DNA of 64,000 nt from Octopus vulgaris (lineage: Eukaryota), in assembly GCA_951406725.2 (NCBI GenBank), contig OX597822.1, positions 26,970,001 to 27,034,000 of the forward strand. The letters are read 5' to 3'. The position numbers and the translations under genes are program-made. Each line of letters begins with the position of its first letter. Position 1 is the first letter of the stretch. The notes beneath the pieces were generated by a model that was not told the origin of the DNA, ran no database searches, and saw only the letters and a program-made list of their open reading frames with translations. Of the stretch, positions 44,410 to 58,197 are shown piece after piece.

Positions 44410-44820
44410 ATAAGAATTTTTTGCGTAATAAGATAAAAAACCAAGGCTATATAGATATTAGAGCATTTATAGATAGAAGGTCTTACAGCTGTTTCTAGGA
44501 TATTTATTAATAATATCCCTTCATCTGAGAAGGGATATTATTAATATATATTTATATTCAATATATGAAGGGATATTATTAATAAATATCCTAGAAACAG
44601 TTGTAAAGCCTATCTATAAATGCTCTAATATCTATGCAGCCTTGGTTTTTTTTTTATCTTATTACGCAAAAAATTCTTATATACCCACGCTGACATAGAA
44701 CCAACGTTGAACCCTTTATTCGCAATATTACCGAATCTGGAACTTAACTATGGTCTGTCTATAGCACTTATTCAGCATTACCTGACACTGTTGGGTCTCA
44801 ATGACACCATTATCTCTCAT
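44410..44820. mobile_element. Fold-back hammerhead element (family E), short arms plus a right-hand 3' extension
   Basis: Inverted arms 44410-44680. Extension 44681-44820 matches the reverse complement of 47616-47765. Confidence 0.8.
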
Positions 44821-47615
44821 ATATATATATATATATATATATATAATGTATGTATGTATGTATGTATGTATGTATGTATGTATGTATGTGTGTGTGTGTC
44901 TGTGTGTGTGTGTATGTGTATAAGTATGTATGTTTGCATGTATGCACACAAAGCGAAAAGAGAGAGGAATATACGCACAGAGATTACATATATATATAGA
45001 GAGTGATATACATATATATATAGAGAGAGAACGGGAGGAAGGTAATAGACAGATAGACAGACAGTCATTTTCCTCGTCCAACTTATCAATTTGTTTTTCT
45101 TGTTTATCTAAGAATTGCGTGAAAGAGAAACCAAACTAAAATTCCTATAGATTTTTCTGCTGTCATTTCAAGATTTTCCTGTGTCTCTAGTTTCTATCGT
45201 AATCAATTTATTTACCAGAATTCTTATGTTTTCTTTATATTTTTATATTATTTTTGCACAGGTTATTGCATTTTACATTTTTATGCATTGTCTTCTATTG
45301 TCATATACACATAGCGATGCTTCCTACGTGGCATTTAAATCACACGTATGTTATTGATATTATATCAAAACTTGAAGGAGGTAGGATATCAGAACCGGTG
45401 AAGCGGCAGATTGAATGGTTTACGATATCTCTTCCGAATCATTACCTTCTAAGTTCAAATCCTGCCGCAGGCAGCTTTGCCTTTCATCCATTCGGAATTG
45501 ATAAAATAAAATACGGTCAAGTGGTGGAGACACTGGTATCGTCTAATCCATTCACAAAATTAGCCGGCCATATGGTTCAATCAGAAACCATTATATCAAA
45601 ACTAGAAGGCGGTGGATTATCAGAACAGCAAAGAGGCGAACTGAAAGCTTTGCGGTTTATATTTATACTTTGGTTTTCTGGAGTTAAATCTCTCCGAGTT
45701 CAACTATCCCTTTCATCTGTCTGAAGTCGGTAAAAATAAAGTATCAGTCAAAAACTAGGGTCGATGACATTGCTTAACTATCGCCCTCAAATAGCTCTGA
45801 TGCTTAACCGCATCCTCTGTCACCTCTGATCAAACAGACCTATGATCAAAACTAGTCCAACCACAACGAACCCCTCTTTTGTTAACACACAATATGCCTA
45901 AGAGTATATTAACCAATGTGTCCTTAATTTTTCAATGACAATTAGAGTGTAACTTGACAGGTGTTTAGCTGCTATTTCTAACCGACCCAATGACTACATT
46001 GAGGTTCTCCGCATGGACTCGCGCTGACAGTAATAATGTAGCAACATAGATAGAATGGGTTTTGAGTTTTAGTGTGTCGAGTAGTGACTCTCAGAGGAAG
46101 GAATGGCAAAATCGTCACCGGCTGGATTCGAACCCCAAATATGTAATTAAATACAATAAGCCATTTTGTCTACCTCTCAACCAATTCTGATAATCCACCA
46201 CCCGCTAGTCTTCATATAATATCAATAGTATACATGTGTTTTAAATGCCATGCAGGAGGTATTGTTCAGTATATATGACAACTGAAGACAATACATAAAA
46301 GAAAACGTAATAATCAGTGCGAAAATAACAAAAAAAGAAAGAAAAAACTAAAGAAAATAATTCAGAGAGAAACTAGAGACACAGAAGAATCTTGAAATGA
46401 CAGCAGAAAAAAATCTATAAGAATTCTGGTTTGGATTGAGTTTCACTCGATTGTTAGAAAAATCCTGGGAGATAAATTGTTAAGTAAAGCGTGAGATCTG
46501 TCTGTCTGCATATTTTTCCTCTCCTTTTTCTTTGTGTGTGTGTGTGTGTGTGTGTGCATGTATGTATGTGTGTGTGTGTGTATATGTACATGCACACGCA
46601 CACTCACATTCACACACACACACATATATATATATATATATATATACAAACGTACATCTATCGTGGAGCCACGACAAGGCCCTTTCAGAGTTAAGTTGTG
46701 GAGAGTTGGGGCCAATCAGAAGCATGTATCACTAACCTCAGGTATCAAGTTTAAACGGAAAGTTGATAAGACTCTTAAGTCAAAAGCAGTTATGGGGGAC
46801 CCGATTTCAATTTTACATCAAACCTCAGACTAAATGATTTAAGTGGATCTGAGCTTTGCAGTTTATATTTATATTTTTGTTTTCTGGAGTTAAATCTCTC
46901 CGAGTCCAACTATCCCTTTCATCTGTCTGAGGTCAGTAAAAATCACCCTCAAATTTCAGACGTTGCTCCAGTCAGAGGCTCGTGGCACTCCGTCGGTTAC
47001 GACGACGAGGGTTCCAGTTGATCTGATCAACGGAACAGCCTGCTCGTGAAATTAACGTGCAAGTGCCTGAGCACTCCACAGACACGTGTACACTTAACTC
47101 ATCTTCCCGGAAAAGATGGCAGTATCATCGCTCAGCTAGACTAGGCAACAAGATCGGTGCGCTATTTCTTGCGGCAGGTCAGTTTGGAACCCAAGTAACA
47201 GAAGAAAAACCTCTTGGGGGAGGCAGCTATACTTGCTGAGGCCAGCTCATGACTATGGTAGTTGATAAGGGACTTTAGATACTATCTTTCTGCAAATGAG
47301 CTAGTTCAGTCTTCGCTGCTCTGCTCAGACTAAGTATAGTAGCGGCTAAAGGGCGAAACACTCGTGATTGCAGGATATCTGCTGATGATATAAAAAAAAG
47401 GTTTCCATCTATGGAATTCCTTCGTCACCATCAAGACAAAGAGCTTGCGACATTTTAAAATATTTCCTGCACTTTTAGCTACAAGTAAAGCATCTACGAC
47501 GCTTTGTCGCAGAGATGGCGCACGTTCACTGTAGAAAGTTCATAGAAGGCTTATATTATGATTTGACGTACATGCTAGATATACGTTCAATATTATATAT
47601 ATATATATATATATA

Positions 47616-55445: not shown

Positions 55446-57421
55446 TAGTAATAATTATTATGCCTAGAGGCTCCTTAACCTACCACACTCGGTCCCTCAT
55501 CCGTAATGCGGCCACATTAGACACAGGGCAATATTTTCTTGCTTATTTTTTTTTTCTAAAAAAGCGTATCTTAAATGCCTGCAAATACTGGACGTCATTC
55601 ATGAATTTCAAGGACACTTTGAAGAGAAGACTAAAGCTGCTGCATGGGCAGGTATGTTGCTGCATCCATGCGATCTGAAATGCTGATATAAATGATTATC
55701 GAAATCAACGTCATATTCATTAAAAAACAAAAGGCTACAAATAAGTGGCTCAATATAATTTAATTATATTTCATACACAGATATAATAATAATCCTAACC
55801 ATGTTATTTTCCATTTCCGGTGAATTGATGTATTATTAGGTTTAAAAGGCATCCCAAACCTTCCCCATTTACTCCCACATTCTTGCTTTCTTACTCTCTT
55901 TCTCGCTTTATTTCCTCCTCTCTCTGTCTGTTTCTCCCTGTCTCTCTCTCTCTCTCTGTGTCTCTGTCTCCGTTACTCCTCTTCTACATTCGCATAATTT
56001 TTGCATACACACTATCATCATACAAAGACTCATGTAAACACGTATTTTCAAATGAAAACAAACTTACAAAATCATATTTTTCATTATTAGTTCTTTCAAC
56101 TACTTTGATAAAACTAGATGTTTTCTATTTTCGATAAAAAGACAAATAAAATTTTTGAAAAAAAAATAAAAGATATGCCTAAGATGGATGTTGTAGCATT
56201 GAATCATTTCTAAATTTAAGTTGTCACGGGATATTGAAGAACGAACAAACAAACAAAAATATCACAAAACAATGCAAAAATACATTGACTGAGAGAGAAG
56301 AAACATTTTCACAAAATGGCGTCTAGAAAATATTCCAACGAGACATCAACGAGACATGGCGGCACAGTCGGTGATAAAATAATTCATATATATACGTATA
56401 TATATATATATATATATATATATATATATATATATATATATACAGGCATATATATGAATGATTGCATTGTCTTTACGTTTGTTGTTTTCATGTTTTTTCT
56501 GTTTTCCCTCCCAATTTTTCTTTCTTTTTCGTTTATGTCGTCACACAACACCAGGAGCAACACCGCTGCCACCACTACCCTTACAACCACCACCACCACC
56601 ACCACCACCACCACCACCACCACCACCACCACCACCACAAAGAACTACAGTACTTGCACTAGCTCCAACATTCAACCGCCGCCACGGACGCAACCAACAC
56701 CATTACCCCCACTACCGTTACACCTCAACCCCTACCACCACCACCACCACCATCACCATCACCACTACCACATCTGCTGTTACTGTTGCTGCTGCTAACA
56801 TCAATGTTTTCGTATCAAACTTTGGAATTCGATCCTCGGTGTCCATCCATTTTGGTTGTAGATTGTCGTAAGATGATTTATCATGTAATAATACTTAATG
56901 ATCGTGTTGTCGTTGTTGTTGTAACCATTTCTGTTGCTGTTGTTGTTGTTGCTATTGGTGTTATTGTTTATTATCGTTGTTGTTGCTTTTGATATTGTTG
57001 CTGATGAAGGTGATGATGACGACGACGATGACGACAACTACAACAACGACGACGATTATGATGATGATGATGATGACGATGATGGCAGTAGCGGCGACGA
57101 TGATGGGTTTTGTGGTGTTGATATTCGAAATTGTGGTCCGAATTACTTTGGAATGATGGTACTATCCGGATTAAGTAGCGTTGCTGAGGGAAATAAGTGG
57201 TGATTGCTTGCTGTGTGGTTAAGAAGCCCACTTTACACCGACATAGTTTTGGGATGAGTACCCCACCGTGTGTTACCTTGGAGAAGTGTTTTCTATAATA
57301 GACCCGGGCCATGAATGCCTTAGGAATGAATTCGATAGACGAAAACTGATTGGAGGCCCATATATATATATATATATCATATGTATTATATATATATATA
57401 TATATATATATATATATGTAT

Positions 57422-58197
57422 AATTTTTTTTCAGAATGAGATAAAAAAAAAACCAAGGCTGTGCAGATTTTAGAACATTTATAGATAGGTCTTACAGCTG
57501 TTTCCAGGATATTAATTATATCTCTTCATCGGAGACGGCGTGAGACGATGGTTAAGCAATAGTTAATTTAGATAGGATACGAAATAGAGAGTAAAGTTGA
57601 GGAATGAACATAGATGTGAGATATGCAGGGATATTGCGTTTGTAGACCCATTATTTAGGCAGAATGGTATACAAATAAGATTACAATACCTTGTGAGTAA
57701 ATTCCAATAGCATTTAGAATTGGTCATTGTAAATTCCAGTTTGGTCATTCCAAGTATAGATTTTGTACATAGTGCTATTTAATCGAAGGTTTTATTTAAG
57801 GTGACCTAAAAGTAAATAAAACCTTCGATTCAATAGCACTATGTACAAAGTCTATACTTGGAATGACCAAACTGGAATTTACAATGACCAATTCTAAATG
57901 CTATTGGAATTTACTCACAAGGTATTAGAATCTTATATGTATACCATTCTGCCTAAATAATGGATCTACAAAGACAATATCCCTGCATATCTCACACCTA
58001 TTTTCTTTTGTTTCCTCCACCTAACTCTCTATTTTATATCTTATGTAAATTAACTATTGCTTAACCATCTTCTCACACCGTCTCCGATGAAGGGATATAA
58101 TAAATATCCTAGAAAAAGCTGTAAGACATTCTATTTATAAATTTTCTAAAATCTACTCAGCCTTGGTTTTTTTATCTTATTACGGAAAAAATTTCTT
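57422..58197. mobile_element. Fold-back hammerhead element (family E), ~375-bp arms
   Basis: Arms 57422-57798 and 57813-58197 around a ~14-bp spacer. Hammerheads at 57489-57536 (-) and 58080-58127 (+). (TA)n flanks. Confidence 0.9.

Follow-up and report, generated by a model that had tools for sequence, protein, structure and literature searches.

A 64,000-nucleotide (nt) stretch of the Octopus vulgaris genome (assembly GCA_951406725.2, contig OX597822.1, forward-strand positions 26,970,001 to 27,034,000; hereafter the window, with coordinates counted from its first letter) was examined for palindromes noticed in a preliminary description that was made from the sequence alone. By sequence reading, self-BLAST and repeat search, three palindromes of one family were identified in the 64-kb window: copy A (44410-44680 without its tail, arms of ~117 nt), copy B (~47761-48185, arms of ~210 nt) and copy C (57422-58197, arms of ~390 nt). 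No fourth copy of the palindrome family was detected in the window by self-BLAST. Read from the turn outward, the six arms of A, B and C represent one sequence (85-95% alike over 105 common columns), and the palindromes, which range from 0.27 to 0.78 kb without tails, all have the same outer end. The three fold-back copies with common outer ends and unequal arms that had been reported were, thus, borne out by self-BLAST and repeat search. Judged by their anatomy, A-C are very probably stumps of an element driven by a Penelope-like element (PLE).

Arms and centres of the palindromes

The left arm of copy A (44410..44528, minus strand) is tail-less, 5'-truncated inside the core of a hammerhead-like motif and adjoins no (TA)n at its outer end. 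Its right arm (44565..44680, plus strand) is also truncated inside the core and has a broken stem III palindrome. The centre of this copy (44526..44564) is composed of a 6-nt loop, a 23-nt restart (44529-44551, a direct repeat of 44567-44589) and AT-rich filler. Copy B was delimited by sequence and repeat search into a left arm (47760..47970, minus strand) and a right arm (47971..48185, plus strand) that is 6 nt longer at the centre, tail-less and followed by (TA)n; the fold of this copy has a z of -39, with none of 100 shuffles equally good. In copy C, a tail-less left arm that adjoins (TA)n (57422..57802, minus strand) and a tail-less right arm followed by (TA)n (57804..58197, plus strand) meet at a centre (57799..57812) that turns tightly around 57803 and has a 5-nt bulge on its right side. 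This turn is spanned, with one difference, by a 150-nt short-read contig from a run that may be the window's own sample. With this contig across the C centre and with arms that differ by 5-12%, the palindromes can be regarded as real and not as artefacts of assembly.

Likeness between arms was compared within and between copies. The A arms were found to be 95% alike and the B arms 91.5% alike, compared to 92.5% for B-right and the C arms. Within copy C, the inner 120 nt of the arms differ at 2 of 115 sites and the remainder at 31 of 263 (Fisher test, p 6.5e-4 with a post hoc split and 0.006 with the split at the midpoint). Placement of short-read contigs revealed several private changes of C-right outside the inner zone, so the likeness of the inner zone can stem from later conversion. 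The homogenized inner 120 nt of copy C suggests either that one arm later converted the other near the turn or that a snap-back bridged two cDNAs to give a hybrid. A 3-nt deletion and a longer T run are common to A-right and C-left and missing in their partner arms, for which slippage hotspots are the simplest reading.

One-sided tail and insertion sites

Arms A-right and B-left continue through a tail into (TA)n, and C is tail-less on both arms. The tails of A (44681..44819, plus strand, then (TA)n) and B (47616..47759, minus strand, adjoining (TA)n) are 85% identical over 141 nt with no indels, in agreement with the one-sided tail of ~140 bp first described. The accompanying remark that this tail lies right in one copy and left in the other has no meaning, as a palindrome is without orientation. 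All four tail-less arms end at most ~6 nt from an internal TATA-like site, and the last 10-15 nt are the least conserved part of the arms in the alignment.

Five of the six outer ends adjoin (TA)n, as had been noted for most ends, and the sixth (A-left) adjoins ordinary sequence. (TA)n runs with a 5-nt margin account for 6.3% of the window, and the chance of finding all three insertions there is ~2e-4 if these are independent. A target-site duplication is unreadable at A-C, as it would be masked by (TA)n. The right flank of B (48220..48275, plus strand; a unique piece and the head of a short interspersed element, SINE) recurs to the right of C (58256..58311, plus strand), where it runs into a long degenerate TA tract. 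This common flank of 55 nt has no substitution and one 2-nt indel, and the arms of B and C differ by 7% (chance ~0.015); at the B/C flank offset no other duplicated block, and no wider duplication, was found. The right junctions of B and C may, therefore, not be independent. A templated copy and a polishing error beside the long TA tract are both possible explanations of the common flank.

Fold-backs among short-read contigs

Contigs of four public short-read runs were placed on the right arm and turn of C, a stretch carried in part by 20 of 24 listed runs. None of the runs that carry it is on record as RNA, and run X11 may be one. By this approach, 4173, 4787, 2898 and 676 contigs were placed per run. 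The ratio of summed to single-contig depth gave rough arm numbers of 600-1,000 close to the centre of C and, at the hammerhead, of 14,000-21,000, which are to be read as orders of magnitude only, summed depth being no true copy number.

At least 25 joints were detected in all, and among the 15 listed were eight strand switches, each at another position. The arms of these eight listed joints are offset by 32-181 nt and overlap by 0 nt (seven joints) or 1 nt (one joint); four of the eight recur in two or three runs. Because the listed strand switches differ in position and offset, variable and unequal fold-backs are a trait of the family. The inner ends that had been proposed to be variable 5' truncations thus proved variable in the six arms and at the eight joints. 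The related claim that hairpins are made 'routinely' holds insofar as variable fold-backs are family-wide, but their frequency has no denominator, with solo copies uncounted and near-symmetric turns probably under-counted. One joint of X2, scored as 'goes back 180', does not start from the 3' end, and no direct partial tandem copy of the family (of the pseudo-long terminal repeat type; pseudo-LTR, pLTR) was present in the window.

Summed depth in X1 drops from ~40,000 at 57840-57855 to ~2,300 at 57808-57823. Depth was not taken as a truncation profile, as it falls also toward the fixed end and where C-right is divergent. At position 57872, X1 depth is 85 compared to 41,706 at 57850, with loose ends at 57883. 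Upstream of 57883, loose ends were carried by 19 contigs of X2 (median 77 nt) and by one contig of X11 (260 nt).

Hammerhead-like motif

The arms bear a motif composed of a 4-bp stem I, CCGAUGA, an unpaired A, a stem II of 5-8 bp, GAAA, a self-complementary stem III and UA. Three of the six arms have it in full: B-left (47831..47878, minus strand), where a variant minimal type I hammerhead with CCGAUGA core and palindromic stem III has one U.G in stem I; B-right (48068..48115, plus strand), where cleavage is predicted after 48111, at 74 nt from the outer end; and C-left (57489..57536, minus strand). In C-right (58080..58127, plus strand) the stem III palindrome is broken by a private change at 58116, and the A arms both stop within the 5' core. 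Thus, the motif GTCT-CCGATGA-stem II-GAAA-CAGCTG-TA-RGAC originally read in the arms is found in full in half of them, and the others have lost part of the core (both A arms) or an intact stem III (C-right and A-right). The stem III palindrome is intact in four of six arms, with a self-duplex of the octamer at -11.1 kcal/mol. The canonical U (T at 58085) makes up 7-13% of short-read contig depth, a share that CpG decay can account for, and CCGA is therefore the state of the family. By its sequence the motif is hammerhead-derived, and its cleavage is putative.

From the predicted cut it is 74 nt to the tail-less end and ~220 nt to the tailed end, and the hammerhead thus marks no end of the element. 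A read-through transcript of B folds as one hairpin of -298 kcal/mol. Since the two motifs are on opposite strands and the read-through RNA is one long hairpin, cleavage as a dimer, which the preliminary description had ascribed to PLE/retrozyme hammerheads, is impossible in cis in A-C. The hammerhead would be a passenger in these copies, buried in the predicted hairpin if transcribed. With respect to activity, PMC3088659 describes U4C as lower in activity in vitro yet viable in a viroid, and a review states that cleavage occurs as dimers at low rates (PMC6765202).

Rfam at its gathering threshold gave no match in the window, and copy B scored below threshold against microRNA (miRNA) models at E<=10. 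A strict hammerhead descriptor matched none of the six arms. By contrast to 0.05 matches in 40 shuffles, a relaxed descriptor with a looser stem II base, tuned after the motif had been seen, matched five times in the window, and all five matches are inside fold-back arms of three unrelated families. Because all five lie in fold-back arms, two of the families being unrelated to this one, the fold-back layout is general for hammerhead-bearing elements of this genome and not a trait of one family.

Other hammerhead-bearing fold-backs were as follows. At 9430-10041, a head-to-head pair (fold-back 9516-10041) has a tRNA-like head, (AAT)n and a minimal hammerhead; its left arm has a textbook CUGAUGA motif, is longer at the 3' end and ends in (TA)n, and its right arm has a CCGA core and a broken GAAA. 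In appearance, this pair combines a SINE-type element and a 3' end in the style of PLEs. The element at 3361-3700 (fold-back 3361-3648) lies between (TA)n runs and has a mini-hammerhead whose core shows an A3-U8 swap and whose stem II is 2 bp long; its tail of ~55 nt, on one side only, also starts after a CTTATATA motif. A fold-back at 5526-5734 with a decayed hammerhead-like motif (U3-A8 type core, right arm) was missed by the descriptor.

Coding capacity

The tail was considered as the putative start of a reading frame, as described for PLEs (PMC3846280). One frame of the B tail is open for 42 codons (47621-47746) and is interrupted by two stops in the tail of A. Substitutions between the tails in this frame are distributed 9/3/9 by codon position (p 0.046, or ~0.14 after frame choice). 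No homologue was found for the 42-aa tail stretch, and neither the tail nor the C-centre peptide had a Pfam match. The C centre had been suggested to encode the end of an open reading frame (ORF); this suggestion was not sustained, as the peptide includes a rare 21-nt duplication, is preceded by an in-frame stop just upstream in both arms and has no homologue. After a one-base frameshift, the C centre would encode a motif that may resemble the end of some GIY-YIG domains. DNA pattern scans yielded one match in metagenomes, a chance site in a bacterial gene, and none in genome contigs or viral contigs.

A decayed ORF piece at 41389-41706 (plus strand) gave the phmmer match P0002 at E 6e-5, no Pfam match and no demonstrated tie to the palindrome family. 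We take this piece to resemble the thumb region of the Penelope reverse transcriptase (RT). Word-index searches for a PLE protein with this remnant and with P0002 gave nothing. By phmmer, a search for a PLE protein gave two matches (one a spurious repeat protein, one a fragment of 142 aa), and an Atlas search gave no usable match.

Origin of the palindromes

Taken together, each palindrome is a head-to-head pair of outer ends in (TA)n and most likely represents two 5'-truncated cDNAs of a PLE 3' end (pLTR), probably primed on opposite strands and joined by their ends (probability roughly 0.6). What is observed of this are the fixed outer ends, the variable and unequal inner ends, the one-sided tail, the TA targets, the high copy number and the hammerhead-like motif. 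Membership in PLEs is argued from anatomy because no RT or endonuclease parent was recovered. In the mechanism we envisage, the GIY-YIG endonuclease of an unseen parent would nick both strands in (TA)n, and the RT would prime one cDNA per nick and stop after 0.1-0.4 kb. For the tailed arm, cDNA synthesis may begin at the very 3' end of the RNA, and the other cDNA would begin at, or be cut back to, an internal TATA-like site resembling the target. The cDNA ends would then be joined with an overlap of 0-1 nt, or with stutter and filler as in copy A. The arms would decay later, and the part near the turn could be homogenized by arm-to-arm conversion, as in copy C. Two end-joined cDNAs would explain the unequal arms, the overlaps of 0-1 nt, the tail-less copy C and, at the centre of A, the stutter and filler.

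Several observations weigh against this reading. Peptide Pfam and homologue searches and DNA pattern scans revealed no RT or endonuclease sequence tied to the family. The 141-nt tail of A and B is about four times longer than the 30-40 nt published for endonuclease-bearing (EN+) PLEs, and the table of joints cannot tell whether all eight strand switches are head-to-head. The hammerhead itself is irregular: all four arms that keep the core have CCGAUGA (U4C) and not the CUGANGA core of the PLE consensus, and at the base of stem II a G.U pair and one extra purine replace G10.1-C11.1 in 5/5 aligned arms. Rfam at E<=10 on copy B returned generic hairpin models only and no hammerhead model, the hammerhead fold of the motif monomer is not its minimum-energy fold, and the stems of four distinct arms have no double-sided and one one-sided change. 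In addition, two features are explained equally well by fold-back of a single template: a 4-nt insertion and three substitutions that are common to the A arms and missing in the other four, and the 21-nt duplication at 57862..57882 (plus strand; mirror at ~57729-57749), which is present in both C arms and rare in the family.

Such a single-template origin would involve one truncated PLE-type cDNA that folds and is copied, with the copy captured by (TA)n at the internal TATA-like site and a tail left on one arm. This snap-back would explain the tight turns (tiny loops in B and C), the A arms of one subfamily (95% alike) and the precise stop of all four tail-less arms at the TA mimic. The inner 120 nt of C (2/115 compared to 31/263 outside) and the 21-nt duplication in both of its arms also fit, although the duplication is no proof of one template in view of the homogenized inner zone, and the private changes of C-right outside that zone mean that the inner likeness can be later conversion. 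The overlap of 0-1 nt at all eight listed strand switches with offsets of up to 181 nt, the stuttered and filled centre of A, and the lack of a tail on both C arms do not favor snap-back, and the B arms (91.5%) are no more alike than B-right and the C arms (92.5%). The preliminary description had left the choice between two primed cDNAs and a fold-back step; the junction data lean to two joined ends without settling it, and we favor two cDNAs, with snap-back a tentative alternative of minor but real likelihood. More far-reaching, and doubtful, is a PLE family of about ten thousand arms with a working CCGA/extra-purine hammerhead, mostly integrated as hairpins from a full-tail cDNA and a cDNA started or cut at the internal TA mimic, bridged by snap-back; its 141-nt tail would be the N-terminus of a missing ORF, and this family and its sisters would together be a major genomic source of long double-stranded RNA.

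Explanations other than a PLE-driven stump were also considered. Internal deletions in elements with long terminal inverted repeats (TIRs) leave variable arms with common outer ends, and TA is the insertion site of Tc1/mariner elements. Thus, A-C could represent a deletion series of a TA-targeting long-TIR DNA transposon of the Foldback type or of miniature inverted-repeat transposable elements (MITEs), with the hammerhead likeness incidental or captured. The failure to find an RT and the irregular hammerhead core agree with this explanation, but the homologous 141-nt extension outside one arm in two copies, the poor conservation of the last 10-15 nt of the arms, a number of descriptor matches well beyond that expected by chance and the recurrence of this layout in two further hammerhead families render it improbable. 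The earlier statement that the arms are not MITE TIRs hence stands on account of the tail that extends beyond one arm, the ragged ends and the hammerhead motif; the common outer ends and variable arms first offered for it are by themselves insufficient. Slightly less probable still is a non-autonomous, ORF-less RNA element of ~0.5-0.6 kb (a SINE- or retrozyme-like PLE parasite) with C near full length. The depth drop in X1 (~40,000 to ~2,300) toward the C centre, the lack of a coding signal and the tRNA-headed non-coding hammerhead element of the same layout at 9516-10041 would suit such an element, yet a drop in depth is expected at any edge of homology, loose ends extend upstream of 57883 (19 X2 contigs, median 77 nt; one X11 contig, 260 nt), and tandem monomers as in retrozymes were not present. 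Assembly artefacts were suspected from the 55-nt flank common to B and C beside a TA tract of low-quality appearance and from a 99% palindrome with a TA centre at 36766-36962. Arms that differ by 5-12%, the 150-nt contig with one difference across the C centre (from what may be the window's own sample) and the detection of 4/8 listed strand switches in two or three runs make artefacts very improbable.

Such stumps are easily misfiled as MITEs or miRNA hairpins. With thousands of short copies, a long and easily scored tail and variable turns, they would permit a genome-wide comparison of two-cDNA and snap-back origins; the mechanism of inverted ends and one-sided tails in PLEs is described as still open, and an in vitro system has been called for (PMC8557442). 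A cleaving CCGA hammerhead, if true, would add a natural core variant.

Other repeats in the window

The palindrome at 36766-36962 is 99% perfect with a (TA)n centre and may reflect a template switch in the TA run or an assembly artefact. No hammerhead match was obtained for further fold-backs, namely a short one at 61293-61450, whose right arm is the longer and ends in (TA)n, and SINE-like pairs in head-to-head order at 22914-23241. Remnants at 42006-42284 and 42880-43227 (minus strand) adjoin (AAT)n and have no significant Pfam match; they presumably correspond to the end of an R2/R4-type long interspersed element (LINE) that bears a zinc knuckle and a restriction-like endonuclease. A helix-turn-helix piece at 63501-63821 (plus strand) is probably of a mariner-type transposase (Pfam HTH_24, E 7e-4, below the cut-off).

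Comparison with known systems

MITEs and Foldback-type DNA transposons have long inverted repeats, TA context and high copy number, as do A-C. By contrast to the conserved termini, uniform length and absence of homology outside the TIR of a MITE or long-TIR transposon, A-C are ragged, have an external 141-nt tail and range from 0.27 to 0.78 kb; their unequal arms and hammerhead motif further set them apart from the MITE/Foldback type. Animal non-LTR retrozymes (PMC7229834; bioRxiv 10.64898/2026.07.22.740005) are like A-C short and non-coding as seen, with a type I hammerhead and a proposed link to PLEs. However, the units of retrozymes follow each other in direct tandem and each has a complete hammerhead, whereas A-C are inverted pairs of variable length only.

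The minimal hammerheads of PLEs have an unpaired base after A9, a long helix II, a helix I of 4-5 bp and a palindromic stem III, and those of pLTRs occur in pairs on opposite strands 100-700 bp apart (PMC4209133). The A-C motif is alike in its 4-bp helix I, unpaired base after A9, long helix II, palindromic stem III and opposite-strand pairs at such distances, and differs in U4C (about nine tenths of contig depth) and in a G.U with extra purine instead of G10.1-C11.1. PLEs have undergone expansion in Octopus vulgaris (PMC13282606). The Octopus elements Naiad_Obim and Naiad_Ovul (PMC8557442 supplement) have a (TA)n preference like that of A-C, and their published 3' ends bear no resemblance to the family when compared by eye. 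Five family motifs had no match in that supplement, where line breaks could hide single motifs. The palindrome family was not described in the literature searched and may already be catalogued (transposable element library of PMC13282606, Repbase/Dfam).

The closest likeness is to EN+ PLEs. PLE insertions have an inverted 5'-truncated partner, a one-sided tail of 30-40 bp and a (TA)n bias (Craig et al. 2021, PMC8557442). According to Arkhipova et al. 2013 (PMC3846280), one inverted pLTR carries the tail, which reaches into the start of the ORF, and Goubert et al. 2022 (PMC8969392) give the inverted-pLTR/tail layout as curation advice. As described in these three sources, EN+ PLEs resemble A-C in 5' truncation, an adjacent inverted truncated partner, a tail at one end and (TA)n targets that mask duplications. 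In A-C, a fixed 3' end with variable 5' truncation was found in the six arms and at the eight listed joints, an inverted truncated copy directly at the 5' end in 3/3 copies in the window, a one-end tail in 2/3, and the (TA)n bias of the Neptune, Naiad and Hydra clades at 5/6 ends; A-C differ as bare stumps with neither ORF nor direct pLTR. The microsatellite-targeting PLE derivative proposed at the outset is thereby upheld as PLE-type stumps in (TA)n, by anatomy, the eight joints and the literature, but with a known PLE layout and not as a special derivative. Unusual are the 141-nt tail and altered predicted hammerhead core, the absence of an end at the cut site, the homogenized C centre and the flank common to B and C. 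The layout itself is already published for PLEs, and the novelty of A-C is confined to the family itself, its long tail and its altered hammerhead core.

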